Shown one piece after another: positions 25,546-42,703 of a stretch of DNA of 64,000 bases. The notes beneath the pieces were generated by a model. It was not told the origin of the DNA. It saw only the letters and a list, made by a program, of their open reading frames with translations, and searched no databases. A program made the translations under genes and the position numbers. Numbering within the stretch: position 1 is the stretch's first letter; each line of letters opens with the position of its first letter. The stretch comes from Psychroserpens sp. (lineage in GTDB: Bacteria; Bacteroidota; Bacteroidia; Flavobacteriales; Flavobacteriaceae): assembly GCF_017643165.1 (NCBI RefSeq), contig NZ_JAEPNY010000003.1; one strand, 5' to 3'.

Positions 25546-25548
25546 GGC

Positions 25549-26541: not shown

Positions 26542-26723
26542 AGTTCTGATTGGTTTTGATTGTCTAAAGGAATATTACTCACTTTCGTGATATAGTCTTT
26601 TTTAGCAGTTATGACCCACCATCCAAGGATGACGAAAAAACTGAAAAATATAATTAAGGAGATCAAAGGATAGATTTCTATTCCTGTGATGCTTTCCATA
26701 TGATGTTTTACAAATTTTAGCAT
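26538..26723 (-). CDS. ccoQ: CcoQ/FixQ-like small membrane subunit
   Basis: 61 aa with one TM (IYPLISLIIFFSFFVILGWWV). It lies between ccoNO and ccoP and overlaps ccoP by 4 nt. Confidence 0.6.
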   Translation of the reverse strand: MLKFVKHHMESITGIEIYPLISLIIFFSFFVILGWWVITAKKDYITKVSNIPLDNQNQSEL

Positions 26724-26729
26724 GACGTC

Positions 26730-28919
26730 TTAGTTTTGAGTTGTTGTTAGTTCAGGCTCTTTCACTTTGATATCAGTACCTAAACGTTGTAAATAAGCTA
26801 TTATCGCTACGATCTCACGATTACGCATTTCTATAAAATCTTCACCACCTGCAGCTTTATCAGCTTCATAGGTTTTTGCAAAATCTGGATCTGTATATAG
26901 ATTTTTCTCGATCTGAGTACCTTGCGCAAGCATTGATTCTTGAGCGTTAGCAATGTCATCCTCAGAATATGGAACTCCTAGTGTTACCATCGCTCGCATT
27001 TTTGCCTCAGTCTGAGACTTATCAAGTTCATTTCTAACTAACCATTGATAAGCAGGCATTATGGAACCAGATGAGGTACTCTGTGGGTCATACATATGAT
27101 TTAAGTGCCAGTTATCGGAATACTTACCACCGACACGATGTAAGTCTGGACCTGTACGTTTACTACCCCAAAGGAATGGGTGATCGTATACATATTCACC
27201 AGCCTTAGAATATTCACCGTAGCGTTCGACTTCATTTCTAAACGGTCTAACCATTTGAGAGTGACAGCCAACACAGCCTTCTCTGATATATATATCTCGT
27301 CCTTCAAGTTCTAAAGGTGTGTAGGGTTGGACGCTTGTAATTGTTGGAATATTCGATTCAACAAGTAGAGTTGGAATAATTTGCACAACACCACCGATAA
27401 GGATCGCAATAGTTGCGAAAATGGTTAATTTGATCGGCTTACGCTCTAACCAAGTATGCCATCCTTCACCTGTTACTCGACGCTTAGATACACGCTTCAA
27501 TGGTGCAGCTTCAGCTAATTCGTCTGTTACGGCGCTACCATTTCTGATTGTGATGATCACGTTAACAATCATGATAATCATACCAGTTAAGAATAATGTA
27601 CCACCAATAGCACGCATCCAGTACATTGGAATAATTTCTGTAACAGTTTCTAAGAAGTTACCATACACTAATGTTCCATCTGGGTTAAATTGTTTCCACA
27701 TTGCCCATTGCGTAAATCCTGCAACATACATTGGGAGTGCATAGAAAATGATACCTAAGGTACCTATCCAGAAATGCAAATTGGCCATTGGCACCGAGTG
27801 TAGTTTCGTTTTAAATAATTTCGGAACCAGATAATAGATCATACCAAAGGTGAGGAATCCATTCCAAGCTAATGCTCCAACGTGAACGTGTGCAATAATC
27901 CAGTCTGTAAAGTGTGCCATGGCATTCATACTTTTTACCGAAAGCATTGGTCCTTCAAATGTGGCCATACCATAACCGGTAATCGCCACCACCATAAACT
28001 TTAAAACGGGGTCTGTACGAACTTTATCCCATGCACCTCGCAGTGTTAACAGTCCGTTAATCATACCACCCCAAGAAGGCATAATTAGCATTACAGAGAA
28101 TGTTACACCTAAATTTTGTGCCCATTCTGGTAAAGCTGTATATAATAAATGGTGAGGACCAGCCCAGATGTAAATGAAAATTAAAGACCAGAAGTGCACA
28201 ATAGAAAGCCTGTAGGAATACACAGGTCTATTAGCTGCTTTTGGTACAAAGTAATACATCAGTCCTAAAAATGGTGTTGTAAGGAAGAACGCCACGGCAT
28301 TATGTCCATACCACCATTGAACGAGTGCATCTTGAACACCAGCATAGACAGAGTAACTTTTCAGACCACTTACTGGGAGTTCTAAACTATTAAAAATATG
28401 AAGTACAGCAACAGTCACAAATGTCGCTATGTAGAACCAAATGGCTACATATAAATGACGTTGTCTACGTTTTAGGATCGTTGCGATTAAATTCCAACCG
28501 AATACAACCCATACCAGAGCAATGGCGATATCAATTGGCCACTCCAATTCTGCGTATTCTTTCGATGTTGTAATTCCGAGTGGAAGTGTAACGGCCGCGC
28601 TCACTATGATTAATTGCCATCCCCAGAAATTAATTTTACTCAAAGTATCACTCCACATACGCGTCTTGAGAAGTCGTTGCGACGAGTAATATACTCCAGC
28701 GAAAATGGCATTACCAACGAATGCAAAAATGACTGCATTGGTATGTAACGGTCGTAATCGACCGAAACTTAACCATGAAATACCGTCAGTGAGGTTAGGG
28801 AATAAAAACATGAATGCCAGGATGAGACCTACGAGCATTCCTACAACTCCCCAAAGCATGGTAGCGTAGAGGAAATTTTTAACGATTTTGTTATCGTAAT
28901 GAAACTGTTGAACTTCCAT
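26730..28919 (-). CDS. ccoNO: cbb3-type cytochrome c oxidase, fused subunits I and II (CcoN-CcoO)
   Basis: About 12 or more TM helices with haem-copper His motifs (HNAVAFF, GPHHL, AHVHVGA). The C-terminal CcoO part carries CVGCHSQMVRP. Confidence 0.93.
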   Translation of the reverse strand: MEVQQFHYDNKIVKNFLYATMLWGVVGMLVGLILAFMFLFPNLTDGISWLSFGRLRPLHTNAVIFAFVGNAIFAGVYYSSQRLLKTRMWSDTLSKINFWGWQLIIVSAAVTLPLGITTSKEYAELEWPIDIAIALVWVVFGWNLIATILKRRQRHLYVAIWFYIATFVTVAVLHIFNSLELPVSGLKSYSVYAGVQDALVQWWYGHNAVAFFLTTPFLGLMYYFVPKAANRPVYSYRLSIVHFWSLIFIYIWAGPHHLLYTALPEWAQNLGVTFSVMLIMPSWGGMINGLLTLRGAWDKVRTDPVLKFMVVAITGYGMATFEGPMLSVKSMNAMAHFTDWIIAHVHVGALAWNGFLTFGMIYYLVPKLFKTKLHSVPMANLHFWIGTLGIIFYALPMYVAGFTQWAMWKQFNPDGTLVYGNFLETVTEIIPMYWMRAIGGTLFLTGMIIMIVNVIITIRNGSAVTDELAEAAPLKRVSKRRVTGEGWHTWLERKPIKLTIFATIAILIGGVVQIIPTLLVESNIPTITSVQPYTPLELEGRDIYIREGCVGCHSQMVRPFRNEVERYGEYSKAGEYVYDHPFLWGSKRTGPDLHRVGGKYSDNWHLNHMYDPQSTSSGSIMPAYQWLVRNELDKSQTEAKMRAMVTLGVPYSEDDIANAQESMLAQGTQIEKNLYTDPDFAKTYEADKAAGGEDFIEMRNREIVAIIAYLQRLGTDIKVKEPELTTTQN

Positions 28920-28925
28920 AATAAT

Positions 28926-29114
28926 TTAATTAGACTTTTTGATTTTAATAGATGGTTTAGGCTGTTCTTTTACGAGTTCGTCCTCGAAAAGCATTCTAAC
29001 AGAAGGCGTATAGCTGTCATCAAATTGACCTCTTTTTACTGCTGTTATGAACGCAATAAAAAAGCCAATAGCAACAATTATACTGATGCACAATAAAATA
29101 TATATAACACTCAT
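28926..29114 (-). CDS. ccoS: cbb3 oxidase maturation protein CcoS
   Basis: 62 aa with an N-terminal TM, followed by VKRGQFDD, which is typical of CcoS/FixS. Confidence 0.85.
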   Translation of the reverse strand: MSVIYILLCISIIVAIGFFIAFITAVKRGQFDDSYTPSVRMLFEDELVKEQPKPSIKIKKSN

Positions 29115-29134
29115 ACCTATTAGAAGTTATGGTT

Positions 29135-29181
29135 CAAAAATACTTCTGAACTGATTCTTAAAACATGACTTATGTCATGTT
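29135..29181 (-). promoter_or_regulatory. Candidate Fnr-type box plus -7 element upstream of ccoS-ccoNOQP
   Basis: Palindrome AACATGAC-TTAT-GTCATGTT at 29162-29181 with 8-nt arms. Minus-strand TATTTTTG at 29142-29135. Spacing is 29.5 nt. Confidence 0.6.
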
Positions 29182-29194
29182 CATTTATTTTTAT

Positions 29195-31567
29195 TCATTC
29201 TAATCTTCTTCCTAATACATTTGTTGCAATTGTGGTGAAAATCACAATGCTGATTGAACTTAATGGCATTAGAATAGCTGCAATCACTGGTGCTAACTGT
29301 CCAGTTACCGCGAAATAGAGTCCGATGATATTGTATATAAATGACAATACGAAGCTCCATTTTATGATTGAAATAGCACTTCGTGAAGCGCTAATAAACT
29401 TGTCTAGTTGATTGAATTTTGAGGCGTCTAAAATGGCATCACATGCCGGAGAGAATACGTTGACGTTTTCGGAAATAGCTATACCTACGTTACTTTGCGC
29501 TAATGCTCCAGCATCATTTAATCCATCGCCAATCATTAAAACCTTAGCGCCTTCACCTTGATGATATTTAATATACTCCAGCTTATCATCTGGTTTCTGA
29601 TTGAATATTAGTTTCGTCTTTGCTGGCAATAGCTTTTTTAAATTTTCTTGCTCACCTTCATTATCACCGGATAAGACAACGAGATCATATTTTGATTTTA
29701 GGGTATTAAATAATTTTGAAAGTCCTTTACGATAACTATTATAAAAGGTGAATTTTCCTTTATACACATCATTAGTACTGACATGCACTGTTGTATTTAA
29801 AATGGTGTTTTCTTGTGCTCCGACAAAGCTTGCAGATCCGATTTTGATATGATCGTTATGATGTTTGGCTTCGATACCTTTTCCTAAATGTTCTTTAAAA
29901 TGTTCAAGAGGTATAATATTGTGTTCATCTAAGATGTCATAGAGCGTTCTACTAAGGGGGTGATTAGAACCTCGCAGCGTGTTTTTTAGAAGCGTTTCTT
30001 CAGAATTTGTCAATGGGATACCATCATAATTAGCACGACTCTTTTTGTTTGAAGTAATCGTGCCTGTTTTATCAAAAATGATCGTATTTATATGAGCGAG
30101 TTGTTCTAATGCAGACGCATTCTTGACATAAAATTTTAATTTTCCGAAGATGCGTAATAAATTACCAAAAGTGAATGGTGCAGATAACGCTATAGCACAT
30201 GGGCACGCAATAATAAGAACTGCTGTAAATACATTCATGGCCTTTGATGCATCAATTATGAGCCAATAGGTTGTTGCGATAAACGCAATGGCTAAAACAG
30301 CTATAGTAAATCGTTTACTAATGGCATTGGTCAAATTGGTGAAACCATCCTCTTTATTTTTATTAAAGACATCATTACTCCATAGCTGCGTGAGGTAACT
30401 TTGTTCAACAGATTTGAGTGCTTCCATTTCAATAACACCTGTTGTTTGTTTACCTCCAGCGAATAGTTTGTCTCCTGATTGTTTTCGCACCGATTCAGAT
30501 TCACCGGTTACAAAACTATAATCGATATGCGCATTTCCGTTTATTAGTATACCATCGACAGGGATCAACTCCTCATTACGTATTAATAAGCGGTCGCCTT
30601 TTTTTATATCATACACCTGAATAGGCGTTTCTTCTCCTGATTTCGATATTTTCGTGACTGCGATTGGAAAATAAGATTTGTAATCACGTTCAAAGGATAA
30701 AAATGAATACGTCTTCTGCTGAAAGAACTTTCCAACTAAAAGGAAAAATACTAATCCAGTTAGGCTATCGAAGAAACCAGATCCTAAATCGAACATGATC
30801 TCAACCGTACTCCTGATAAAGAGAACCGCAATACCTAAAGCGATCGGTACATCAATATTTAAAAGCCTGGATCGTAAGCCTTTATACGCTGAAATAAAGT
30901 AATCTCGTCCGGCATAAAAAACAACGGGTAGCGCATAACCAAACATAATCCATCTGAATAAATGCTTGTACTGCTCCAGCCAATATTCTCCAACCTCGAA
31001 ATACTCTGGAAATGACAAAAACATCACATTTCCGAAGGCAAAACCTGCTACACCTAGTTTATAAATAAGAGATCTATTAACTTTAGATGATCCTGTTTTA
31101 AAGTCGTCAAGTGATATATAAGGTTCATAACCAATTGAACTTAGTAAGAGCACTACGTCTTTTAAGCTCACATTTTCGGCGTTATACGTGACGCGTACTG
31201 TCTTCTTACCAAAGTTCACCATAGAAGCAGTGATGCTTTGATTCAGTTTATTAAGATTCTCTAAAATCCAGATACAAGAACTACAGTGAATGTGTGGAAT
31301 ATAAAGTGTCGCGATTTGTGTTTTACCATCGTTAAATTCGGTAAGTTTTTCAATGATGTTTTCTTCTGAAAGAAAATCGTATTTGCCTTGAATTTCCTTC
31401 GGAATGGCTCCAGGTGATGATTCTAAGTCATAGTAGCATGTAAGATCATTTTCTGAAAATATCTCATACACAGTTTTACAGCCATTACAACAGAAATGCT
31501 TTTCCTGGAATGTTATTTTGGTGGAATTACAGTCATCACCACAGTGGAAACAAGTTGTTTGTTCCAT
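29195..31567 (-). CDS. ccoI: Heavy-metal (copper) translocating P-type ATPase, CcoI/FixI type
   Basis: N-terminal CxxC pairs (CFHCGDDC, CCNGC). CPC motif (IIACPCAIALS). DKTGT and GDGLNDAGAL. ATG at 31567 (MEQTTCFHCG) is preferred over the ORF-track start at 31603. Confidence 0.9.
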   Translation of the reverse strand: MEQTTCFHCGDDCNSTKITFQEKHFCCNGCKTVYEIFSENDLTCYYDLESSPGAIPKEIQGKYDFLSEENIIEKLTEFNDGKTQIATLYIPHIHCSSCIWILENLNKLNQSITASMVNFGKKTVRVTYNAENVSLKDVVLLLSSIGYEPYISLDDFKTGSSKVNRSLIYKLGVAGFAFGNVMFLSFPEYFEVGEYWLEQYKHLFRWIMFGYALPVVFYAGRDYFISAYKGLRSRLLNIDVPIALGIAVLFIRSTVEIMFDLGSGFFDSLTGLVFFLLVGKFFQQKTYSFLSFERDYKSYFPIAVTKISKSGEETPIQVYDIKKGDRLLIRNEELIPVDGILINGNAHIDYSFVTGESESVRKQSGDKLFAGGKQTTGVIEMEALKSVEQSYLTQLWSNDVFNKNKEDGFTNLTNAISKRFTIAVLAIAFIATTYWLIIDASKAMNVFTAVLIIACPCAIALSAPFTFGNLLRIFGKLKFYVKNASALEQLAHINTIIFDKTGTITSNKKSRANYDGIPLTNSEETLLKNTLRGSNHPLSRTLYDILDEHNIIPLEHFKEHLGKGIEAKHHNDHIKIGSASFVGAQENTILNTTVHVSTNDVYKGKFTFYNSYRKGLSKLFNTLKSKYDLVVLSGDNEGEQENLKKLLPAKTKLIFNQKPDDKLEYIKYHQGEGAKVLMIGDGLNDAGALAQSNVGIAISENVNVFSPACDAILDASKFNQLDKFISASRSAISIIKWSFVLSFIYNIIGLYFAVTGQLAPVIAAILMPLSSISIVIFTTIATNVLGRRLE

Positions 31568-31593
31568 AGAAATTTGCTCATTAATACCTGTTA

Positions 31594-31638
31594 CAAAAGT
31601 CACAAAAGAACTGCGGGAAAAATATGATTTTTGTCATG
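31594..31638 (-). promoter_or_regulatory. Candidate Fnr-type box plus -7-like element upstream of ccoI, in the divergent region shared with the Crp/Fnr gene
   Basis: Minus-strand CATGAC-AAAA-ATCATA at 31638-31623. GACTTTTG at 31601-31594. Spacing is 29.5 nt. Confidence 0.5.
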
Positions 31639-31674
31639 TTTTAATTATCTTTACCCTTGACTAAAAAATTAGGT

Positions 31675-32352
31675 ATGAGTAGATGTGAACAATGCATCAT
31701 ACGCGAGTTTAACACCTTAAAAGCACTTACAAAAGAGGAGTTAATTCGCATCTCGGGATGTAAAACTTCCAAAACTGTTAAGAAAGGAGAAATCATTTTT
31801 GAAGAGGGCGATACCCTGAATGGCGTTTATTGTGTCAAAGACGGAATTTGTAAAATGTCGAAGTTAAGTGCCAATGGCAAAGATCAGATCGTCAAGCTGA
31901 TCGTTAAAGGAGATCTTATGGGTAAGAATTCCATTATTCGAGAAGAATCAGCCAACTTAACAGCTGTTGCTTTAAATGATATGGAAGTATGCTTCATACC
32001 TAAACAGGAGATTATGAATGATCTTAAGAAGAACCCGAATTTCTCCATGGAGGTGCTTAAAAAGATGACCAATGATCTAAAAACCTCAGAAAACATAATA
32101 GTGAATATGGCACAGAAGTCGGTTAAGCAACGATTAGCCGACCTTCTTATTTATATACATGACTCATTTGGAGTGGACGAGAACGGTTTCCTGAAAATTG
32201 TATTGTCACGTGAAGATTATGCGAATGTTGTAGGAACGGCTACAGAATCTGCGATTCGCATATTATCTCAGTTTAAGAAAGCTGGTTACATTTCAACAGA
32301 AGGTAAACAGATAAAAATTGAGCGTATTCAAAAACTCAAGCTCATAGAGTAA
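31675..32352 (+). CDS. Crp/Fnr family transcriptional regulator
   Basis: cNMP-binding-like beta-roll (GEIIFEEGDTLNGVYCVKDGICK) and a C-terminal HTH (REDYANVVGTATESAIRILSQF). The N-terminus MSRCEQC carries a CxxC pair. ATG at 31675 is preferred over the TTG at 31657. Confidence 0.85.
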   Translation: MSRCEQCIIREFNTLKALTKEELIRISGCKTSKTVKKGEIIFEEGDTLNGVYCVKDGICKMSKLSANGKDQIVKLIVKGDLMGKNSIIREESANLTAVALNDMEVCFIPKQEIMNDLKKNPNFSMEVLKKMTNDLKTSENIIVNMAQKSVKQRLADLLIYIHDSFGVDENGFLKIVLSREDYANVVGTATESAIRILSQFKKAGYISTEGKQIKIERIQKLKLIE

Positions 32353-32406: not shown

Positions 32407-33534
32407 ATGAAACAGAAAAATAATTACAGGAAAGGATTCGTCTTCAAAAGCTACGAGGCGCCTAATCAATCACCATTTGAAAAACTCTTCGAGATCTTTA
32501 AAGAGCTCATTACGTATACATCTGGGGACTTTGATGAAGCCATAGATTGGCTACGGCAGTTAGATAAGGAATACGAACTAACCACTGCCGAATATACTAT
32601 AGATGATTTTATTGAAGACCTAAAAAAGAAAGGATATATCAAGGAAGAAATAGATCCTGATGGAAATGGTGGTCTATCAATAACCGCTAAAACAGAACGC
32701 GCGATACGTCAGCAAGCCTTAGATCATATTTTCGGAAAAATCAAACGCAGCGGACGTGGAAATCATAAAAGTAAAAGTCCGGGATTAGGCGATGAGCATA
32801 CAGGAGATTTTAGATCCTATCAATTTGGTGATGCTTTAGAGAAAGTGTCCGTTACCGAGAGTTTACGCAACGCTCAAATCAATCATGGTATTGGTAATTT
32901 TAATTTGACCGAAGATGATCTCGTGGTTGAAGAAACGATGCATAAATCTCAAATGAGTACCGTACTTATGATTGATATAAGTCACAGTATGATATTGTAT
33001 GGAGAAGACCGAATTACGCCTGCTAAAAAAGTGGCTTTGGCTTTGGCGGAGTTAATAACAACCCGTTATCCTAAAGATACTTTGGACATTTTAGTATTTG
33101 GGAACGATGCCTGGCAAATTCAGATTAAAGATTTACCGTATTTAAAAGTAGGACCTTATCATACCAATACAGTTGCTGGATTGCAATTGGCCATGGATTT
33201 ATTAAGACGCAAAAGAAATACGAACAAACAAATTTTCATGATTACAGATGGTAAACCTAGTTGCTTGCGTTTATCTGATGGACAGTATTATAAGGATAGT
33301 AATGGGTTGAATCCATATATTACGAATAAGTGCTATGCGATGGCACAGCAAGCCCGTAAATTGCATATTCCAATAACCACATTTATGATTGCGCAGGATC
33401 GCTATTTGATGCAGTTCGTTCAAGAATTCACACGCGCTAATCAAGGGAAAGCTTTTTACACAGGATTAAAAGGATTAGGAGAGATGATCTTCGAAGATTA
33501 TGAAACCAACAGGAAAAAAAGAATTAAAGGATAA
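32407..33534 (+). CDS. VWA (von Willebrand factor A) domain protein
   Basis: MIDAS motif DxSxS (MIDISHSM) with downstream MITDGKPS. The stop overlaps the next start by 1 nt. Confidence 0.8.
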   Translation: MKQKNNYRKGFVFKSYEAPNQSPFEKLFEIFKELITYTSGDFDEAIDWLRQLDKEYELTTAEYTIDDFIEDLKKKGYIKEEIDPDGNGGLSITAKTERAIRQQALDHIFGKIKRSGRGNHKSKSPGLGDEHTGDFRSYQFGDALEKVSVTESLRNAQINHGIGNFNLTEDDLVVEETMHKSQMSTVLMIDISHSMILYGEDRITPAKKVALALAELITTRYPKDTLDILVFGNDAWQIQIKDLPYLKVGPYHTNTVAGLQLAMDLLRRKRNTNKQIFMITDGKPSCLRLSDGQYYKDSNGLNPYITNKCYAMAQQARKLHIPITTFMIAQDRYLMQFVQEFTRANQGKAFYTGLKGLGEMIFEDYETNRKKRIKG

Positions 33535-35000
33535 TGAATATAGAAAAGATAAAAACTTTAGGTGAATTGAAGGCCACTGGCTATCATTCAAGATCAATTA
33601 AAGATGAACTTCGTGTCAATTTAATTGAGAATATCAGAAATGGACATAACACTTTTGAAGGTGTACATGGCTATGAAAACACTGTGATTCCTGAATTAGA
33701 ACGCGCTATTTTATCACGACATAATATCAACTTACTCGGTTTACGAGGTCAGGCCAAGACACGCTTGGCGAGACTTATGTTGAATCTTCTAGATGAATAT
33801 ATACCAGTAGTTGAAGGCTCTGAGATCAACGACGATCCTTTGGCGCCTATTTCTAGATATGCTGTACAATTGATTGAAGACAAAGGTGACGCTACTCCAA
33901 TATCATGGCTGCATCGTAGTGAACGATTTGCAGAAAAATTAGCAACACCAGATGTAACCGTAGCCGATATTATTGGTGATGTAGACCCAATCAAAGCTGC
34001 TAACCTGAAATTGAGTTATGCTGATGATCGTGTGATTCACTATGGGATGATTCCACGAGCGAATAGATGTATTTTCGTGATTAATGAACTTCCTGATTTA
34101 CAGGCAAGAATTCAAGTAGCCCTTTTTAATATCTTACAGGAAGGTGACATTCAAATACGTGGTTTTAAACTGCGATTACCATTAGATCTACAATTTATTT
34201 TTACGGCCAACCCTGAAGACTACACAAATCGTGGAAGTATCGTTACACCGTTAAAAGATCGAATAGGAAGTCAAATTTTAACCCACTATCCAACCGACAT
34301 TGAGACGGCAAGATTGATAACAGAGCAAGAAGCGCGAATATTAGAAGAACAAAATTCATCGGTTACTGTTCCTGATCTCGCGAAAGATCTATTGGAACAA
34401 ATTGTTTTCGAAGCCAGAGAAAGTGAACTGATTGATGCGAAGAGTGGAGTAAGTGCAAGACTAAGCATAACCGCGTTTGAAAATTTATTAAGTACTGCGG
34501 AACGACGCGCATTAAAAGTGGGCGATGATCAAACCTTATTGCGTTTAAGTGATTTTTTAGGAATTATTCCTGCAATTACGGGTAAAGTAGAGCTGGTTTA
34601 TGAAGGCGAACAAGAAGGCGCTGCAGTTGTTGCATATAATTTGATAGGTGAAGCAGTTAAAAGTTTATTTCCAGAGTTTTTCCCTAAAATTGAAAAGCTG
34701 AAGAAGGAAGATGATGATACACCTTACGATGATATCGTGTCTTGGTTCTTTAATCAGCAAGACGGATTTGAACTTATGGATGACTTAAGAGATAAGGAAT
34801 ATAAAGCAATACTTGATGCAATTTCACCTTTAGATGATTTACTAGGGGAATATCAACCGGGATTAAAGAAAGCGGAGAGTTATTTTGTTAAAGAATTTGT
34901 TTTATGGGCACTTGTCGAATATAAGCAACTGAGCAAATTTCGTTTTACTGAAGGTATTCAATTTAAAGACCCTTACGGTAGTTTTATAAGTGGAATATAA
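33534..35000 (+). CDS. AAA+ ATPase, Mg-chelatase (ChlI/BchI)-like
   Basis: ChlI-like layout: GYENTVIPELERAIL, the P-loop region LLGLRGQAKTRLAR and the Walker-B region CIFVINELPDL. It is coupled to the VWA gene. Confidence 0.7.
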   Translation: MNIEKIKTLGELKATGYHSRSIKDELRVNLIENIRNGHNTFEGVHGYENTVIPELERAILSRHNINLLGLRGQAKTRLARLMLNLLDEYIPVVEGSEINDDPLAPISRYAVQLIEDKGDATPISWLHRSERFAEKLATPDVTVADIIGDVDPIKAANLKLSYADDRVIHYGMIPRANRCIFVINELPDLQARIQVALFNILQEGDIQIRGFKLRLPLDLQFIFTANPEDYTNRGSIVTPLKDRIGSQILTHYPTDIETARLITEQEARILEEQNSSVTVPDLAKDLLEQIVFEARESELIDAKSGVSARLSITAFENLLSTAERRALKVGDDQTLLRLSDFLGIIPAITGKVELVYEGEQEGAAVVAYNLIGEAVKSLFPEFFPKIEKLKKEDDDTPYDDIVSWFFNQQDGFELMDDLRDKEYKAILDAISPLDDLLGEYQPGLKKAESYFVKEFVLWALVEYKQLSKFRFTEGIQFKDPYGSFISGI

Positions 35001-35608: not shown

Positions 35609-36199
35609 TTAATCTCTGCTCTTTTTATTTAGTAAGCAAAATTCAATAATTTGATCTATACGATTTTGTCTGGTATTAGGACGTTTCGCTTGATGTAACC
35701 AATATAAATAACTTTTTCTGTAGGAGCGTGCAAAGCCATTATAGTTTGTAAATGCTTCAGGATGTTTATCAAAAGCAAGTTTTAGATCATCTGGTATAAT
35801 TCCATTTTCTACATCATCAAGAGCTGTCCAACTCCCGTTTGATTGTGCAACTTCAATAGACTTTAATCCACTTTCATGCATTAGATTATTATGTATTAAA
35901 TCTTTAATGTATGACTTATTTAAGGCACTCCAAACACTTTTGGCTTTGCGAGGACAAAAATATTGACGACGTTTGCCGTTACCTAAACTCTTTACTGTAG
36001 AATCGATCCACCCAAAACAAAGCGCCACTTTTACAGCTTCTTCCCAACGCATCGAAGCCTCTTTATTTTCTAGTTTATAAAAGATGAGATACACACCACT
36101 AGATGTGTTATAGTTTTGTTCGAGCCAAGAACGCCACTCATGATCTGTTTTGAAATATAATTCCATGTCTAAATCTAGTAAAACTTCATTTAATTTCAA
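35609..36199 (-). CDS. YdeI/OmpD-associated family protein
   Basis: EWRSWLEQN near the N-terminus and a C-terminal KSYLYWLHQAKRPNTRQNRI pattern fit this family. Confidence 0.6.
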   Translation of the reverse strand: MKLNEVLLDLDMELYFKTDHEWRSWLEQNYNTSSGVYLIFYKLENKEASMRWEEAVKVALCFGWIDSTVKSLGNGKRRQYFCPRKAKSVWSALNKSYIKDLIHNNLMHESGLKSIEVAQSNGSWTALDDVENGIIPDDLKLAFDKHPEAFTNYNGFARSYRKSYLYWLHQAKRPNTRQNRIDQIIEFCLLNKKSRD

Positions 36200-36385
36200 T
36201 ATTGCTTATAACTTATTGATTTATATGTTTTTAGCTATGAGTAATTTGATACCGTTTAACGATGAATTTTACTAAATTGTGATGATAAACGATTAAAAAT
36301 TATACTTTATCGAGTTTTCTTAGTTAACGTAATCTGTAGGTATACTTTTACAAGCGTTATTGATTATGGTGAAAACCGTATAGAT

Positions 36386-36406
36386 TTTGGCCCCAAGCCT
36401 ATGAAA
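36386..36406 (+). promoter_or_regulatory. Conserved 21-nt leader block, copy A (TTTGGCCCCAAGCCTATGAAA)
   Basis: Identical to 41681-41701. It is a GC-rich island in an AT-rich 439-nt intergenic region upstream of the 1590-aa T9SS gene. Confidence 0.55.
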
Positions 36407-36638
36407 CAAGAATACCTACAATTAGCAGCACCTACTGCAACGTTATGTAACTACTCATTTTTCCTGGCATTCAGGAAATCCCTTAATTATAGTTTTTTAG
36501 CGTAGATTTTAGAGTATTATAATTTCATACCTATTCTTCAATAGCTTATTAATCCATAATACGTTTAGCGAAAGCGATGTATGATCCCTCAATGATTTTT
36601 AAATCAATGATGCGACACATCATTAAAAAGCTATTAAT

Positions 36639-39600
36639 ATGGAAGCTAGTAAGAATTTTAAAAAGCCTACAACGGTCAAGTTAGTAATACTTGTCCTTTT
36701 ATTCTTATTTAATACGATTTATGTATTAGCTCAGAATCAAGAAAATGATGGTAATACCAATGTTGGTGAAGTTTCATCAAATTTTGGTGTTTCAGGAACT
36801 ACAGTAATTAGTCATTCTACATTCGAAAGTGGACTTGATGGATGGACGTTAGGTGGTGGTCATGCGCTAAGACAATCGAATTCAACATGGTCTTATAAAG
36901 GGTCATATTCACTTATGATCAGAAATCAAGATGCAATTGGAAACGCATCATCAGTTTTATCTCCATTAATGGATTTATCTACTTATGATAAAGTAGATAT
37001 CAAATTCTTCTTTAAACCATTTAGTATGGAATCAACCTATAACAGTTCAGGAACGAAAACATATTCCGAAGATTTTATGGTTGAGTATAGTAGTGATGGA
37101 GGATCTAGTTGGACGACCGTAGCTACCTTTGAAAGTGGACAAGTATGGCGTAAATCTGCAGATTTTGAATCGACCAGTTCAGCTATTGCGTACGGTAAGG
37201 TTGTGACCATATTTAAAACCGATCATATATTCCCATCGGGTTTAAATGGTCAGTTTAGAATTCGATGTGCGGCAAATGCAACTGATGACAGAGTCTTCCT
37301 AGATGAAATAACTATTTCTGGAACAACATTCCATACATTTAGCAAAGCCCCAGGAGGGATTACTGCCGACCTAGATCTTTGGTTAAAAGCAGATCAATTG
37401 GATGGTACATCCTATGGAACAGATGGTGCATCAGTAAATCAATGGATTGATAACGGAAAAGGAAATAACGCGGAGGTTATGGTTACTGGACAAGAACCTG
37501 TATATCGCAACAATACGGACCGCAACTTTAATTTCAATCCGGTTATCGACTTTGACAATAACAATAGCACAGCAAATCGTGATATGACCTATATCATTAG
37601 TGATGGTAGTAGGAAAGAGCTCACTGGAACTGGTGGATTTAATTCAAATGAGATGTTTGTTGTAATTATGCCAGATCCAACGATTACTACTTCAATGATT
37701 CCTTTAGATACATTTACGAGTACTGATCCAGCTGGACCATCCTACACTGAAGATGTAACAGGATTTGGATATGGTGGTTATACCGCAAGATTCGAAAATG
37801 AACGATTGGCGTACTGTATTGCAACGACATCAGAGACGCCATCTAATCCAACCGAAAATGGTTATGGACGAGCAGATACGAGTACGGGAACGGATTATAA
37901 TAAAATTCATATTATAAATATTCGTCAGAACGCTTCAGATACTGATATGGAGTTGTTTTTTAATGCCAATCAAGTTGGTACAGAAACTAATGACATTCCA
38001 AAATATAAGATGATCAATAACGGCCGATTTTGGATTGGAAGAAGCCAGTATTGGAATGGAAGTTTTAACGGACGAATCGCTGAAATAGTAACCTACAATA
38101 CAAGAAAAAATGACGCTAGTCTAGTAACAGACCATAATAGAATTCAGTCGTATCTGGCTATAAAATATGGTATTACATTAGGTGTCAATGGTACATCACA
38201 AGATTATGCTGATAGTGATGGTAAAGTGATATGGGATCAATCTGCAAATGCTGGTTATAATTATGATATTACTGGTATTGGTAGAGATGATGTGTCAGAA
38301 TTAAACCAAAAACAATCGCGCAGTGTTAATGATGCAACCGATGGTGTAGGACGTACCGAAGGAATTCTTACAATGGGCTTGAATGACATTTATGATACTA
38401 ATAAAGAGCACCAAACGTCAGACCCAACAACATTTAATGATAAAGAGTTTTTAGTGTGGGGTAATAATGGTGCGGATTTAAATTTGGCATCATCGACGGT
38501 TTCTGTAAATATGAGTGCTGGAATTAGCCCTTCGTTAACTACAGATGTTACTTTTACAGCTATGCAACGTACTTGGAAGGTTGTAGAAACAGGTGGTGAT
38601 ATTCCAGCTGTAAAGGTAAGAATACCTCAAGATGCTATTCGAAATATTAATCCTCCTGGAAGTTATCTGATGTTTATTTCAGATACAGGAGTATTTGATC
38701 CAACCGCAGATTATAGAATTATGACTTCTGACGGAAATGGCAACCTAGAAACCTCTTATGATTTTGATGGAACAAAATATATAACATTTGGATATGCACC
38801 TCAAGTTATTGTTGAGCGTTCCGTGTATTTTGATGGATTGGTCGATTATATCGATATGGAAAATGTATTAAATCTTAATTCCTCTGAGTTTACTGTATCA
38901 GCTTGGATCAAAAGAGACGCATCCGACTCAGGAACAAAATCAATTTTATCAAAACGAGATGCTGCTTTTACTCAAGGTTATGATTTAAGAATATTAGATA
39001 ATAATAGAATACAATTTTACTGGAAGAATGGGGCTAACCAAGTCACGCGTTCGTATACGTATCTTTCTGATGATGTATGGCATCATGTAGCTGCCATTTA
39101 TGATGGTTCAAATCTTGCGCTTTACATAGATGGTGTATTAGATATTCAGGAGTCTAAGTCGCCTCCAGTAGATACTAATGAATCTTTTTATATCGCTGCA
39201 GCTGGAAAAAATTCGCCTACACAACACTTTAGAGGAAATGTTGATGAGGTTCGTATTTGGGATACCAATTTAACCGTTGATCAATTACGCTATATCATGA
39301 ATCAAGAGATTGAAGAGAATTCGAGCTTTGTTTCAGGTAAAGTGATTCCGAATGACATTACTAAAAATGAAGTTGACGAAATTCCATGGTCTGAATTAGC
39401 AGGATACTATCCGATGTCTGTATATACCTATACAAATACGGATGATGCTTCTGGAAACGGACATCAAGGAGCGTTAAGAAATTTAGATACTGTAGATAGA
39501 CAAACTGCACCTTTACCTTATGAGTCTAATACAAATGGTAATTGGACGTCTTCAGGTACTTGGTCAAACGGGAGTATACAAACAATTCCAGGTGCTCCAT

Positions 39601-41411
39601 CTATCGTAGATTCATCAATTCCTGTAGATTGGAATATTGTTAGAACATCGCACAATGTAACTATGTCAAATAGTACAATAACAACTAATAATAGAACATT
39701 ACTAGGTTTATTTGTTGATGCAAACACGCTTACAGTCGATGGAGACAATGCTGCCGATACTGGAAATGGATTAACAGTCTCACACTATTTAAAACTTGAC
39801 GGTAAGATTGATCTTCAAGGAGAATCACAAATGATTCAAACTGAAGACAGTGATTTAGATGTTAATAGTGCTGGAACTTTAGAAAAAGATCAACAAGGGA
39901 CTCGAGATATGTTCACTTATAATTATTGGTCATCACCTGTTGGAAATACAAGCACGACCATTAATAACACATCATATAGTGTGAGTTCAGTTTTAAAAGA
40001 TGGAACGAATCCTAGTAGTCCTCAAAATATTACATTCATTACTAATAGTTATGATGGAACATCAGGTTCACCAATTGGTATTGCTGATTATTGGATATGG
40101 AAATTTGTAAATCAAACTAGTGGTGATTATTCATCATGGCAACATGTTAGGAGCAATGGTACTTTAAATCCTGGTGAAGGATATACTATGAAAGGTGTTG
40201 CTGATACTGCTGGAAATGTAACTTTAGAGCAAAATTATACTGTAAATGGGAAACCTAATAATGGATCTATTTCATTACCAATTAATGCAGGTAATGATTA
40301 TCTAGTAGGTAATCCATATGCATCTGCTATTGATGCTCATGCATTTATCCAAGATAATGCACCAACAATTGATGCAGCAGGTAATACCACAGGGACACTA
40401 TACTTTTGGGAACATTGGGGTGGAGGATCTCATGTTTTAAATGAATATCAAGGTGGTTATGCAACTTACAATTTGGCTGGTGCTGTACCAGCAGCTGCCT
40501 ATGGTATTGCTGATGATGATGTAGATCAGAGTGTATTGGTAGGAACCAAATTACCAGGACGTTACATTCCTGTAGGTCAAGGTTTCTTTGTAGTTGGTGA
40601 GAATACTGGAACAATTCGATTCAATAACAGTCAACGTGTATTCCAAAAGGAAGGATCTAGCGCATCTGTATTTATGCGTAATGATGGATCACAATCATCG
40701 GCTGATACATCTGAAGAGGTATTTGACCCTAGAATGAAAATTAGATTGCAATTTAATTCTGTAAATACCTACTTAAGAAAAATTCTTGTAGTTGCAGATG
40801 ATAATGCCTCAATGGCCTATGATTGGGGTTATGATGCAGAGCTCTATGATAATCAAGTGGATGATATGTACTGGTTGATCGATGATACTAAGTATGTGAT
40901 TCAAGGGATCAATACAATCGAGTCGACAACTGAATTACCGTTAGGTATTAACACTAATACCGATGGTTTAAATACAATTTCAATTGATAAATTGGATAAT
41001 ATACCAGATGACATGAACATTTATGTCTATGACATGGTATTAGGAATCTATCATGATCTGAGAGCGTCAGCATATGAAGTTGATTTAACGGCAGGGACGT
41101 ATATGGATCGATTTAAGATTGTATTCATAGCAGGCGATACTTTAAGTATTGAAACGCCTGAAAATAATGAAAATGTGTTAAGTGTATTTTATAATACTAC
41201 AGATAAGAATATAACAATACAAAACCCTAATGGACTTGTAATAGAAGGTATAGAAATCTATACAATTTTAGGACAAACTATGGTGAGTATTGAGGAGAGT
41301 AATTCTCAAAATGAAATTAGGATTGATACAACTGCTTTCAGTACTGGAACTTACATCGTAAAAGTTCAATCGGAAACAGGAAGTATCTCTCAGAAGATTA
41401 TAGTTAATTAG
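36639..41411 (+). CDS. Very large T9SS-secreted surface protein (MAM-like and LamG-like domains, C-terminal sorting domain)
   Basis: Signal peptide. MAM-like N-terminal domain (FESGLDGWTLGG ... FLDEITISG). LamG/ConA-like domain (about 38820-39310: FTVSAWIKRD, WHHVAAIYDG, FRGNVDEVRIWD). T9SS sorting domain (IEIYTILGQTM ... GTYIVKVQSETG). Confidence 0.85.
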   Translation: MEASKNFKKPTTVKLVILVLLFLFNTIYVLAQNQENDGNTNVGEVSSNFGVSGTTVISHSTFESGLDGWTLGGGHALRQSNSTWSYKGSYSLMIRNQDAIGNASSVLSPLMDLSTYDKVDIKFFFKPFSMESTYNSSGTKTYSEDFMVEYSSDGGSSWTTVATFESGQVWRKSADFESTSSAIAYGKVVTIFKTDHIFPSGLNGQFRIRCAANATDDRVFLDEITISGTTFHTFSKAPGGITADLDLWLKADQLDGTSYGTDGASVNQWIDNGKGNNAEVMVTGQEPVYRNNTDRNFNFNPVIDFDNNNSTANRDMTYIISDGSRKELTGTGGFNSNEMFVVIMPDPTITTSMIPLDTFTSTDPAGPSYTEDVTGFGYGGYTARFENERLAYCIATTSETPSNPTENGYGRADTSTGTDYNKIHIINIRQNASDTDMELFFNANQVGTETNDIPKYKMINNGRFWIGRSQYWNGSFNGRIAEIVTYNTRKNDASLVTDHNRIQSYLAIKYGITLGVNGTSQDYADSDGKVIWDQSANAGYNYDITGIGRDDVSELNQKQSRSVNDATDGVGRTEGILTMGLNDIYDTNKEHQTSDPTTFNDKEFLVWGNNGADLNLASSTVSVNMSAGISPSLTTDVTFTAMQRTWKVVETGGDIPAVKVRIPQDAIRNINPPGSYLMFISDTGVFDPTADYRIMTSDGNGNLETSYDFDGTKYITFGYAPQVIVERSVYFDGLVDYIDMENVLNLNSSEFTVSAWIKRDASDSGTKSILSKRDAAFTQGYDLRILDNNRIQFYWKNGANQVTRSYTYLSDDVWHHVAAIYDGSNLALYIDGVLDIQESKSPPVDTNESFYIAAAGKNSPTQHFRGNVDEVRIWDTNLTVDQLRYIMNQEIEENSSFVSGKVIPNDITKNEVDEIPWSELAGYYPMSVYTYTNTDDASGNGHQGALRNLDTVDRQTAPLPYESNTNGNWTSSGTWSNGSIQTIPGAPSIVDSSIPVDWNIVRTSHNVTMSNSTITTNNRTLLGLFVDANTLTVDGDNAADTGNGLTVSHYLKLDGKIDLQGESQMIQTEDSDLDVNSAGTLEKDQQGTRDMFTYNYWSSPVGNTSTTINNTSYSVSSVLKDGTNPSSPQNITFITNSYDGTSGSPIGIADYWIWKFVNQTSGDYSSWQHVRSNGTLNPGEGYTMKGVADTAGNVTLEQNYTVNGKPNNGSISLPINAGNDYLVGNPYASAIDAHAFIQDNAPTIDAAGNTTGTLYFWEHWGGGSHVLNEYQGGYATYNLAGAVPAAAYGIADDDVDQSVLVGTKLPGRYIPVGQGFFVVGENTGTIRFNNSQRVFQKEGSSASVFMRNDGSQSSADTSEEVFDPRMKIRLQFNSVNTYLRKILVVADDNASMAYDWGYDAELYDNQVDDMYWLIDDTKYVIQGINTIESTTELPLGINTNTDGLNTISIDKLDNIPDDMNIYVYDMVLGIYHDLRASAYEVDLTAGTYMDRFKIVFIAGDTLSIETPENNENVLSVFYNTTDKNITIQNPNGLVIEGIEIYTILGQTMVSIEESNSQNEIRIDTTAFSTGTYIVKVQSETGSISQKIIVN

Positions 41412-41436
41412 TTAGTTTTTTAATTTATGTCGACTT

Positions 41437-41467
41437 AAAGGCTGCCCTCGGGTGGTCTTTTTGTTTT
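41437..41467 (+). terminator. Terminator after the 1590-aa T9SS gene
   Basis: The stem AAAGGCTGCC / GGTGGTCTTT needs G-U pairs, so it forms only in plus-strand RNA. A CUCG loop and then TTTTTGTTTT follow. Confidence 0.6.
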
Positions 41468-41680
41468 ATAATTAGAATTCTGTCTCGTATTTTATAATAA
41501 CTACCTTATAAACAATGTTTTAAGTTTGAATTTAACGATTAAAATGTATTTCAACGATAAAACAAGCGTATTGTATCATCTTAACGAGTATATCAAGCTA
41601 CTAATCGAGTAATTCGGGCTTGATATAGGGGCTAGTTTATCTTTGAAAAGTTATTGATAACGAGTGGTTTATCAAGAATA

Positions 41681-41701
41681 TTTGGCCCCAAGCCTATGAA
41701 A
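41681..41701 (+). promoter_or_regulatory. Conserved 21-nt leader block, copy B (TTTGGCCCCAAGCCTATGAAA)
   Basis: Identical to 36386-36406. It lies in the 494-nt intergenic region upstream of the 265-aa T9SS paralogue. Confidence 0.55.
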
Positions 41702-41905
41702 TAATGACCTATTTAATACTTCATTAGCTCCAACCTAATATTCGTTTATTAAGCTCTTCAATAACTAGTTAATCCACATGCTTTTCATAATTGTAAAGTA
41801 TGCTCCCTCATAAGTCAGAACATTTGTTGCTGACATTTTAGTAAAGAACATAAGTTATTAATTAAACCAATGAGGTGAGCAATCACTTTTTAAAATCCTA
41901 CTATT

Positions 41906-42703
41906 ATGAAAAAAACTACGCTATTTAACTTTAAATCAGTAATTGCAGCGCTTTGCATTTTACTTAGTACCGGAACTCCGTTCTCTGTTGCCCACGCTCA
42001 GCAGTCTGATGTTGAACCGGACCTTAGAATGAAAATACGTTTAGAGTATAATTCTCCGGACAGTTACAGTAGAGAAATATTAGTAATTGCAGATGAAACT
42101 GCAACGGATGGAGTAGATGAAGATTTTGATGTAGTGATGAATAATTTACAACCAGACGATATGTTTTGGTTAATCGGTTCGGAAAAATACTCAAATCAAG
42201 CCATTAGCGAGATAAATACAGAAACTGTAATTCCAGTTGGAATCACCGTAAATAGTTCTGGTATGAATTCTATAGCAATTGATAAACTTGAAAATATCCC
42301 GGAAAACTTTAAAATTTTCGTTCACGATATCACTTTAGGAGTTTATCATGAGATTAAAGAAGGTGCATATGAAGTTAATTTGACTTCTGGTGTGTACTTA
42401 GATCGTTTTGAAATTGTATTTACTCAGCCAGAAACCTTAGGCGTTAACTCGTTTGAGTTAGACAAAGAAGATATAATCGTATTTTTCGATCAAAATGCAG
42501 ATGAAATCAAAGTAATTAATAAGAACAATCTAGTAATTCAAGGTGTTGATGTGTATTCAATTTTAGGGCAGTCTGTCTATAGAAATCAAACTACTAACAC
42601 ATCTAATTTGAATATTAACGTGAATCAGTTAACGACAGGAGCCTACATAGTTTTAGTTCACACTAACACTGGTAAAGTTTCGAAGAAGATATTAATCAAT
42701 TAA
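41906..42703 (+). CDS. Small T9SS C-terminal-domain protein, paralogous to the last ~228 aa of the upstream 1590-aa protein
   Basis: A signal peptide followed directly by DLRMKIRLEYNS ... IDKLENIPENFKIFVHD ... YLDRFEIVF ... VDVYSILGQS ... GAYIVLVHTNTG. This is colinear with residues ~1363-1590 of the large protein. Confidence 0.8.
   Translation: MKKTTLFNFKSVIAALCILLSTGTPFSVAHAQQSDVEPDLRMKIRLEYNSPDSYSREILVIADETATDGVDEDFDVVMNNLQPDDMFWLIGSEKYSNQAISEINTETVIPVGITVNSSGMNSIAIDKLENIPENFKIFVHDITLGVYHEIKEGAYEVNLTSGVYLDRFEIVFTQPETLGVNSFELDKEDIIVFFDQNADEIKVINKNNLVIQGVDVYSILGQSVYRNQTTNTSNLNINVNQLTTGAYIVLVHTNTGKVSKKILIN

Follow-up and report, generated by a model that had tools for sequence, protein, structure and literature searches.

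A probable two-domain leader RNA before two adjacent type IX secretion cargo genes in Psychroserpens and its close relatives

Introduction

Riboswitches and other structured leaders share a recognizable design. A long 5' untranslated region (UTR) lies directly 5' of the regulated gene and contains a multi-helix domain that is closed by a first helix, P1, and has near-invariant nucleotides at its junction, and in riboswitches a 3' segment can pair either locally or with the start region. Here we describe two leaders of this general design, in which H4 would be the local helix, in a 64,000-nucleotide stretch of DNA from Psychroserpens sp. (Flavobacteriaceae; assembly GCF_017643165.1, contig NZ_JAEPNY010000003.1), which we call the window. 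Each precedes one of two adjacent paralogous genes, A and B, for type IX secretion system (T9SS) cargo, and the sequence blocks that the two leaders have in common probably form the conserved framework of a structured RNA, a long 5' untranslated leader. The likeness to riboswitches has limits. The genes here encode secreted surface proteins (LamG/DUF8202) rather than metabolic or transport proteins, and the gene context suggests no ligand. Moreover, this leader is confined to one clade, with two copies per genome, and its alternative pairing is without covariation support.

Other described systems resemble the leader in part. Orphan structured RNA motifs are known from Flavobacteriia, among them Flavo-1 and 64 structured 5' regions in Flavobacterium psychrophilum (PMC9723704). 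Like the element described here, these are structured leaders of unassigned function, from the same bacterial class, that came to light through comparative or transcriptome analysis. However, Flavo-1 does not match our element, which is much longer and has more than one domain. RNA thermometers and cspA-type 5' UTRs are also long leaders in which a moderately stable A/U-rich helix masks the start codon, as our folds predict here, whereas the sequence-invariant junction and loop found here suggest specific recognition. Bacteroidetes mRNAs do without Shine-Dalgarno sequences, and initiation on them needs an unstructured, A-rich start region (PMC6847099).

The DNA 5' of the leader has parallels of its own. 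It shares with activator-dependent Bacteroidetes sigma-A promoters a TAnnTTTG motif at -12 to -5 and a weak -33 region. Direct repeats of the LytTR type are phased by 21 bp, a resemblance that we treat as a lead only: the 21-bp-spaced direct repeats at this locus likewise end beside the -33 region, but their consensus, WWNCGAKTWT, fits no nameable site, no regulator gene lies nearby, and the likeness concerns only the DNA 5' of the leader.

Post-transcriptional control in Bacteroidetes is poorly understood. To our knowledge, few cis-regulatory RNAs are described in the phylum beyond the universal riboswitches, and our literature search found no RNA element tied to the expression of T9SS cargo. 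Rfam 15 (4227 families) gave no matches at the gathering threshold in the window or in five orthologous loci, and at E ≤10 over 36150-42000 it gave only two chance snoRNA matches inside gene A. We thus describe a leader RNA that had not been catalogued before; it has two domains, is restricted to one clade, precedes T9SS cargo genes and resembles structured leaders of the riboswitch type.

Results

Two paralogous cargo genes share ordered blocks in their leaders

The two genes lie on the same strand:

36639..41411, + strand: gene A, 1590 aa; signal peptide, DUF8202, Laminin_G_3 and T9SS C-terminal sorting domain
41906..42703, + strand: gene B, 265 aa; signal peptide, a module resembling the C-terminus of A, and T9SS sorting domain

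Both products carry the T9SS C-terminal sorting domain PF18962. Gene B is paralogous to the last 240 amino acids of gene A at 43% identity; an earlier reading of the DNA, made from the letters alone (the sequence-only reading), had put the identity of the coding modules at about half, slightly above this figure. Because an intrinsic terminator at 41437-41460 follows gene A, gene B should have its own promoter. The intergenic regions upstream of the two genes measure 439 nt (A) and 494 nt (B), the same lengths as first reported, and neither holds a long open reading frame (ORF): the longest encodes 41 aa and none is common to both.

What do these two regions share? The sequence-only reading had pointed to four blocks in a common order, and we found all four in both leaders. 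Block 0, GTTATTGAT(T/A)A, lies at 36356 and 41650. Block 1 is the 21-mer TTTGGCCCCAAGCCTATGAAA, an exact match at 21 of 21 nt between 36386-36406 and 41681-41701. Block 2, TCTTCAATAnCTnnTTAATCCA, lies at 36535 and 41755 with 86% identity over 22 nt, and block 3, GTATGnTCCCTCA, at 36579 and 41798. The 21-mer has exactly these two copies in the window, both on the + strand, with no further matches at up to three mismatches; two matches arose in none of 100 shuffles. Outside the blocks, the two window leaders give no meaningful alignment. Two hairpins that the sequence-only reading had set against each other as counterparts of different sequence, at 36606-36624 and 41814-41834, are not homologous. 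The first is the terminal hairpin H6, whose counterpart in leader B is 41870-41891, and the second is a variable hairpin, H5b. The feature is also longer than first described, and runs from the CGA repeats and the -7 box 5' of block 0 to the start codon.

The blocks are predicted to fold into a two-domain RNA

Counted from the predicted transcription start, the leader measures ~284 nt for gene A and 256 nt for gene B, and other species have lengths of up to ~390 nt. Unguided RNAalifold runs on A-type leaders, on B-type leaders and on both sets returned P1, H0, the GGC-CCCAA-GCC hairpin, P3 and H1, with an additional UACC/GGUA helix in A-type leaders. Block 0 (GUUAUUGA) pairs with the first half of block 2 (UCAAUAnC) to form P1. 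P2 (AAAUAU with AUAUUU) is stacked under P3 (UAUGAAA with UUUCAUA), and the 21-mer consists of the end of P2, the GGC-CCCAA-GCC hairpin and the 5' strand of P3. The 21-mer therefore spans a three-way junction. Single-sequence folding of each window leader recovers the same helices (z = -4.83 for B, -3.37 for A).

The elements of leader A are as follows:

36356..36363, + strand: block 0, the P1 5' strand GUUAUUGA; pairs with 36538-36545 (RNAalifold, single-sequence fold, covariation)
36365..36380, + strand: hairpin H0, UAUGGU-GAAA-ACCGUA, with a GNRA loop (single-sequence fold)
36386..36406, + strand: 21-mer, made up of the last P2 bases and junction, GGC-CCCAA-GCC (36389-36399) and the P3 5' strand UAUGAAA (36400-36406)
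36407..36522, + strand: insert found only in A-type leaders, with H1 (36425-36438, GCAG/CUGC) and H2 (36461-36477, UUCCUG/CAGGAA)
36523..36529, + strand: P3 3' strand UUUCAUA (RNAalifold, covariation, single-sequence fold)
36535..36558, + strand: block 2, with the P1 3' strand UCAAUAGC (36538-36545) and the invariant linker UUAAUCC
36559..36582, + strand: hairpin H4, AUACGUU..GC-GAAA-GC..GAUGUAU (single-sequence fold; family covariation)
36579..36591, + strand: block 3, in which UCCCUC (36585-36590) is conserved; window A has lost the AAGGGA partner that lies downstream elsewhere
36606..36624, + strand: terminal hairpin H6, AAUGAUG-CGACA-CAUCAUU, 14 nt 5' of the start codon at 36639

Those of leader B are:

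41650..41675, + strand: block 0 as the P1 5' strand GUUAUUGA (41650-41657), and H0, UUGAUAA/UUAUCAA (41654-41675)
41676..41701, + strand: P2 5' strand GAAUAUU (41676-41682) and the 21-mer (41681-41701) with the hairpin GGCCCCAAGCC (41684-41694) and the P3 5' strand
41719..41743, + strand: P3 3' strand UUCAU (41720-41724) and P2 3' strand AAUAUUC (41737-41743), separated by an insert of 12 nt specific to this lineage
41755..41776, + strand: block 2, with the P1 3' strand UCAAUAAC (41758-41765) and the linker UUAAUCC
41777..41809, + strand: hairpin H4 (41777-41802) and block 3 UCCCUC (41804-41809)
41814..41834, + strand: variable hairpin H5b, GUCAG...CUGAC (GAUCA...UGAUC in the sister leader)
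41870..41891, + strand: terminal hairpin H6 with a GGUGA-GCAA-UCACU core and a GNRA loop, 14 nt 5' of the start codon at 41906

In our model these elements form two domains. In the 5' domain, which covariation supports, P1 encloses the variable H0 and the three-way junction of P2, the GGC-CCCAA-GCC hairpin and P3. The 3' domain holds H4, block 3, a variable hairpin and the terminal H6 ~14 nt before the AUG, and the UCCCUC of block 3 can pair with a downstream AAGGGA or GAGAAU box. A-type leaders carry ~100 extra nt of hairpins (H1, H2 and the UACC/GGUA helix) in the P3 loop, an insert that B-type leaders do without. Window leader A (36591-36605) and its sister, L091A, have lost ~80 nt that elsewhere contain H5b and the AAGGGA box pairing with block 3.

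The helices keep pairing while both strands change

Pairs were counted in MAFFT alignments (A7, A12 and A13) of constructs from which the A-type insert had been excised. The covariance-model alignment (A10) was not used for these counts since many A-type leaders are misaligned in it, because of the ~100 nt inserted in the P3 loop; matches of ~50 bits spanned only ~110 nt. MAFFT makes register errors in H4, H6 and H0, so the counts of pairs changed on both sides are conservative. The share of paired cells, which is inflated because the ~33 leaders are few and related (~20 lineages) and themselves served in part to derive the structure, was 88% in the 5' domain (P1, H0, P2 and P3; 26 leaders) compared with 36-42% with slid partners, and 84% in H4 and H6 (30 leaders) compared with 30-42%. 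In the 5' domain 10 pairs changed on both sides, giving 31 such cells compared with 13.8, and the covariation score was 0.114 compared with 0.076. None of 500 shuffles was as high on any of these measures. For H4 and H6, 12 cells were changed on both sides compared with 5.0, and the covariation score of 0.099, compared with 0.065, was also reached by none of 500 shuffles. H1 added 12 compensated cells across three pairs. Covariation analysis of orthologous leaders, which the sequence-only reading had proposed, thus gave values above shuffles in the 5' domain and in H4 and H6, and the 5' domain has the conserved, covarying structure of a riboswitch-class sensor domain.

Nine further leaders were recovered with the covariance model and a protein-based sample, without using the 21-mer. 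Three of the nine have the exact 21-mer (L088A, L089A and L089B) and six vary, by one to several nucleotides, so that the "perfectly conserved" of the sequence-only reading was too strong. The variants are:

L018B: a junction U is replaced by G
L091A (sister of window A): an additional C in the loop
L033B: CCUAUAAGA; P3 is UAUAAGA/UCUUAUA, with two compensatory pairs; the ATG is lost
L088B (Formosa sp. Hel1_31_208): GGGUCCCAAGCCUACGAAA; compensatory changes in P2 (AAAUAA/UUAUUU) and in H4 (AUACUUA/UAAGUAU)
L091B (sister of window B): keeps P1, H0 and P2; the GCCUAUGAAA part has diverged
L090B: reduced, with P1, H0, a GGCCCCAAACC hairpin, UUAAUCC and CCUCCCUC

The core common to all variants is GG(C/U)CCCAA(G/A). 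Around it, the helices are kept by different sequences. P1 is GUAAUUG/CAAUUAC in L091B and GUUAUUG/CAAUAAC in window B, a compensatory change, and P2 shows an A-U to G-C change, GAAUAUU/AAUAUUC in window B compared with AAAUAUU/AAUAUUU elsewhere. H0 is UUAUGGA-GUGA-UUCAUAA in the sister genome and AUUGUA/UACAAU, GUGAU/AUCAC or GUAAU/AUUAC in other species; H2 is ACCUG/CAGGU in L091A; compensatory variants of H6 are UUGAUG/CAUCAA (L010, L024) and GGUGC/GCACC (L013, L021); and L043 has a wholly different H4 sequence. Close relatives swap GNRA loops with each other, GAAA/GCAA in H4 (GAAA in window A, GCAA in L091A), GAAA/GUGA in H0 and GCAA/GCGA in H6 (GCGA in L088B), and G-U wobble pairs are tolerated, as in AUGGUG/CAUCAU of H6. 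Because of these compensatory changes, GNRA swaps and wobbles, we conclude that selection acts at the RNA level, and we have high confidence that the leader is a selected RNA structure.

Could the blocks instead be DNA elements only, operators or activator sites spread over ~250 bp in which RNA structure is incidental? The 21-mer is near-invariant as a protein site would be, its TTGGC-N5-GCC is weakly palindromic, and true DNA elements, the phased CGA repeats and the -7 box, lie just 5' of it. However, P1, P2, P3, H0, H1, H4 and H6 keep pairing though both of their strands change, and the wobble in H6 works only in RNA. The blocks also sit 3' of the best promoter candidate, and their spacing varies by up to ~100 nt, which a DNA-protein complex would tolerate poorly. 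We therefore regard a DNA-only explanation as improbable.

A second possibility is that the 5' domain is a separate or 5'-UTR-derived trans-acting small RNA (sRNA) rather than a cis regulator. It is a compact module closed by P1, and its CCCAA loop could serve as a pairing seed. Against this, we found no intrinsic terminator after the 5' domain or elsewhere inside the leaders, the 5' domain always lies directly 5' of these two genes in the same orientation, and the 3' domain is co-conserved up to the start codon; a trans-acting sRNA is very unlikely. Of the three identities that the sequence-only reading had offered, the long structured 5' UTR fits best, given that the helix strands covary; a purely DNA operator leaves the compensatory changes unexplained, and a free-standing sRNA lacks a terminator.

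The 21-mer also contains an ATG, which might open a regulatory upstream ORF or leader peptide. ATGAAA lies inside the conserved 21-mer and starts a 34-codon ORF in leader A, but across leaders this ORF ranges from 2 to 38 codons and its peptide is not conserved. The ATG is itself lost in L033B (ATAAGA, where the opposite strand compensates), in L088B (ACGAAA) and in L091B. We give a leader peptide hardly any weight. The related idea that UAUGAAA of the 21-mer acts as a start-site decoy is weakened by the changed sequence in L033B and L088B.

Some leaders are reduced. In Psychroserpens sp. XS_ASV72 (L090, 6688-7000), gene A is absent, gene B follows directly after OmdA, and the leader is without P2, P3, H4 and H6. 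Psychroserpens luteus (L012, 560-991) has a degenerate copy, an A-type leader without block 2, H4 and block 3, and a stop cuts the gene behind it to ~60 codons. Because some lineages have lost modules, not every part of the leader is essential.

The leader pair is confined to one clade and one gene pair

One genome per species was scanned for the exact 19-nt core of the 21-mer. The core was present in 12 Psychroserpens genomes and one metagenome-assembled genome (MAG) labelled Dokdonia, and there was one chance match, in Pandoraea. The two-leader arrangement stands before the orthologous gene pair in at least 15 genomes or MAGs of the Psychroserpens clade, 12 of them labelled Psychroserpens. 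No genome has more than two core copies, which lie 4.8-5.3 kb apart on the same strand. The A-type copy is 307-336 nt 5' of an A-type gene of 1300-1600 aa and the B-type copy 207-213 nt 5' of a B-type gene of 265-269 aa. The covariance model of the 5' domain, scanned over the 64-kb window, found only two copies there. A degenerate metagenome scan that permitted stem changes in the hairpin returned 58 stretches; three are real, all with the exact 21-mer, and the other 55 are chance matches without blocks 2 and 3. The same long leader is present in a metagenome contig with an A orthologue (L004).

Two sequences in this sample may be flawed. The MAG labelled Dokdonia sp. (L009, JBLHML010000016.1) has a leader and A gene nearly identical to those of L004, and the N-terminus of its A gene resembles that of Psychroserpens burtonensis (L026); its label or binning may be wrong. 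The contig end at L049 1172-1221 looks like a Nextera adapter (CTGTCTCTTATACACATCTCCGAGCCCACGAGAC) and would be an assembly artefact that truncates the leader.

Because there are at most two copies per genome, two of them in the window, and always before A or B genes, the 21-mer is specific to this gene pair. The sequence-only reading had proposed to look for enrichment of the 21-mer 5' of T9SS cargo genes, and it occurs only before A and B. On the same counts we rejected the idea that it is a regulatory motif, or the operator of a regulon, dispersed among T9SS cargo genes. A miniature inverted-repeat transposable element or other mobile repeat was rejected as well, given two syntenic copies per genome and a conserved locus order.

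The blocks are better conserved than the genes they precede. Across species, conservation is 99% for the 21-mer, 94% for extended block 1, 93% for block 2 and 87-89% for blocks 0 and 3; it drops to 52-68% in the hairpin loops and the A-specific insert. Mean nucleotide identity over the first 360 nt of the coding regions is 59% (A) and 66% (B). Judged by these values, the blocks are discrete leader segments under purifying selection and not the result of recent duplication. The sequence-only reading had preferred selection to recent duplication, and the values of 87-99% for blocks compared with 59-66% for coding sequence agree with it. Neither of two outcomes that it had named as fatal was found: the inter-block sequence of the window leaders does not align, so the flanks are not equally conserved, and the 21-mer also occurs before orthologous A and B genes in other genomes.

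Might the block similarity nevertheless be a neutral remnant of gene duplication, or a mobile repeat? In its favour, genes A and B are paralogous and adjacent. However, their coding modules are 43% identical while blocks are identical, the blocks persist across species whose coding sequences are ~60% identical, and there are only two syntenic copies per genome. We find this explanation scarcely credible.

A candidate sigma-A promoter precedes block 0

Candidate promoter elements lie 5' of both leaders:

36286..36318, + strand: CGA-core direct repeats of A, TAAACGATT and TTATCGAGT, spaced by 21 bp; their CGAs are 53 and 32 nt before the -7 box
36343..36350, + strand: candidate sigma-A -7 box of A, TACTTTTA; predicted transcription start ~36355
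41581..41613, + strand: direct repeats of B, TTAACGAGT and TAATCGAGT, spaced by 21 bp; relative to the -7 box their CGAs are at -53 and -32
41638..41645, + strand: perfect sigma-A -7 box of B, TATCTTTG; predicted transcription start 41650, the first base of block 0

In flavobacteria the -7 box extends from -12 to -5, and G is avoided at its -10 and -9 positions (PMC6847099, PMC9723704); for F. johnsoniae, a weak -33 element has been reported (PMC6847099). A TAnnTTT(G/A) box occupies one alignment position in all 32 leaders, 3-5 nt 5' of block 0. It reads as a perfect TAnnTTTG in all B-type leaders and as TAHHTTT(A/G) in A-type leaders, and it agrees with the Bacteroidetes sigma-A -7 box, TAHHTTTG at -12 to -5. 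From this consensus we place the transcription start 4-5 nt after the -7 box with moderate confidence, so that the RNA would begin with block 0. By comparison, 5' UTRs of F. psychrophilum have a median length of 24 nt (PMC9723704).

Other promoter candidates were set aside. A standard sigma-70 scan was uninformative, with fewer sites than in shuffles, and the Bacteroidetes -7 rule was used instead. In AATATTTG, which abuts the GGCCCC core, A replaces the near-invariant T at -12, and its spacing from block 0 differs among leaders by 8 nt. Many A-type leaders have TATGTTTG another 21 nt 5', but it has a G at -9 and is absent from window A. We judged both to be less likely promoters than the TAnnTTT(G/A) box beside block 0.

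Upstream of the -7 box, CGA occurs at -32/-33 in 25 of 32 promoters, at -53/-54 in 30 and at -83/-84 in 22, a phasing of 21 and 30 bp. The third CGA of leader A is at 36260-36262 (-83 from the -7 box). The repeat consensus is WWNCGAKTWT, with direct repeats such as AACGAGTAT, and by manual count the proximal CGA is also at -32/-33 in the short-leader orthologues of other genera described below. Counted from the predicted transcription start, the CGA-core repeats would lie at about -45, -66 and -96. We read them as probable activator sites. Beside the locus we found no dedicated regulator, of the LytTR type or otherwise; the sole regulator nearby is of the Fnr/Crp type, by cbb3 oxidase genes.

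The CCCAA hairpin also occurs in short leaders of other genera

Short leaders precede DUF8202 genes in Winogradskyella wandonensis and four metagenome contigs. Their promoters have a perfect TTTG-N20-21-TAnnTTTG at three of the five loci (L001, L003 and L006), a perfect -7 box only in L002 and an approximate -7 box only in L005. About 10-20 nt past the promoter, a hairpin presents CCCAA(G/A), as AGUCCCAAGCU, AGCCCCAAAUCU or AGUCCCAAAUU, followed by a conserved TTAACC. The AUG lies ~22 nt after the hairpin at four of the five loci and 34 nt after it in L002. These short-leader stretches, each with its hairpin, are:

L001, 7205-7254
L002, 505-573
L003, 790-839
L005, 380-442
L006, 600-646

In L005, a CCCAA-hairpin unit also stands directly after the stop codon of the upstream T9SS gene (241-270). 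On the evidence of these five loci we tentatively suggest that the CCCAA hairpin is older than the long leader, which seems to be built around it. Its presence before DUF8202 orthologues in other genera may point to a trans-acting factor, whether protein, RNA or metabolite, that serves this cargo family specifically.

Predicted masking of the start codon

How might the leader act on the gene behind it? By minimum free energy and ensemble folds, the AUG is paired in 20 of 22 full leaders, with a probability of being unpaired of at most 0.07. Among other genes of the window (n = 37), the median of this probability is 0.39, and only 8% fall below 0.1. In nearly all of these the AUG pairs with UUUUC(A/G)UAAUA, which belongs to the H4 5' half and lies 130-160 nt 5' of the start; in window B, the two complementary segments are UUUUCAUAAU (41782-41791) in H4 and AUUAUGAAAA (41903-41912) around the start codon. 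In window A and its sister L091A, the partner is UCCAUA of block 2 (36553-36558 in window A), complementary to UAUGGA of the start region (36638-36643). The same two leaders have this UCCAUA opposite an altered start context, AUGGAA. Forcing the start region open costs a median of 5.2 kcal/mol, and H4 then folds on itself in about half of the leaders.

These folds suggest a two-state platform in which H4 folded on itself would be ON, and the H4 5' half paired with the start region would be OFF. Only when H4 folds on itself would the start codon escape masking. Sensing, whether of a small molecule, protein, RNA or temperature, would fall to the invariant 5' domain, in which the CCCAA loop is exposed. 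In this model translation initiation is what the leader likely controls, in cis; start-codon masking is the weakest step of the proposal, and we hold it with lower confidence.

A leader of this kind might also be a temperature sensor, either an RNA thermometer or a cspA-like cold-responsive 5' UTR. A modest A/U-rich helix that takes ~5 kcal/mol to open is predicted to mask the start region, the hosts are cold-marine bacteria, and cold-shock mRNAs typically have long 5' UTRs that can fold in alternative ways. However, a near-invariant junction of 40 nt and an exposed CCCAA loop are more than a thermometer needs, and the retention of the CCCAA hairpin in the short leaders of other genera argues for sequence-specific recognition. 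We consider temperature sensing unlikely.

Genes around the locus

The order OmdA, A, B, peptidase M28 and onwards is conserved across the loci of relatives, and the closest named relatives of window protein B are in Formosa sp. Hel1_31_208 (59%) and Psychroserpens spp. A pair of genes for a VWA-domain protein and an AAA_5 (MoxR-like) ATPase lies 5' of the locus in the window (32407-35000) and in L090, and an ATPase gene is in the matching place in L088 and L091. Further 5' in the window (24121-32352) is a cbb3-type cytochrome oxidase cluster (CcoN/O fusion, FixP, FixG-like) with a copper-type P-ATPase and an Fnr/Crp-family regulator; it has no relation to the leaders. In L001 (13154-16850), a giant SprB-like gene 3' of the orthologous locus has at least 17 tandem repeats with a 231-nt period, identical across the 77 nt shown.

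Discussion

We found that two adjacent T9SS cargo genes of Psychroserpens stand behind leaders whose shared blocks fall into covarying helices. Beyond the structure itself, it is possible, and we say so only tentatively, that these leaders represent a new class of riboswitch-like sensor RNA that couples a signal to the translation of two T9SS-secreted surface proteins of marine Flavobacteriaceae, with the CCCAA hairpin as the recognition element.

Several observations weigh against our interpretation, in addition to the inflated pairing shares. At the promoter, no TTG is conserved in the -33 region 17-21 bp 5' of the -7 box; some B-type leaders have TTTG at 22 bp; most A-type -7 boxes end in A, not G; and the transcription start is placed from the consensus only. 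In the RNA, P2 has a U-U mismatch in six leaders, H0 partly overlaps P1 in window B, and L012, L090B and L091B have lost modules, as has window A in its 3' domain. Pairing in the anti-start helix reaches 91% but shows no covariation above shuffles, 223 of 500 of which reach the observed score; this pairing may merely reflect A/U-rich conserved sequence.

Why should such a narrowly distributed RNA be of interest? Its general importance is limited by that distribution. Nonetheless, it is a well-defined RNA of two domains and 250-390 nt, supported by covariation, that comes with a clear prediction of start-codon masking. A minimal (B-type) and an expanded (A-type) version stand side by side in one genome, and other lineages supply natural deletion variants. 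Altogether, the leader pair offers a tractable entry to how surface and secreted proteins are switched on in marine flavobacteria.

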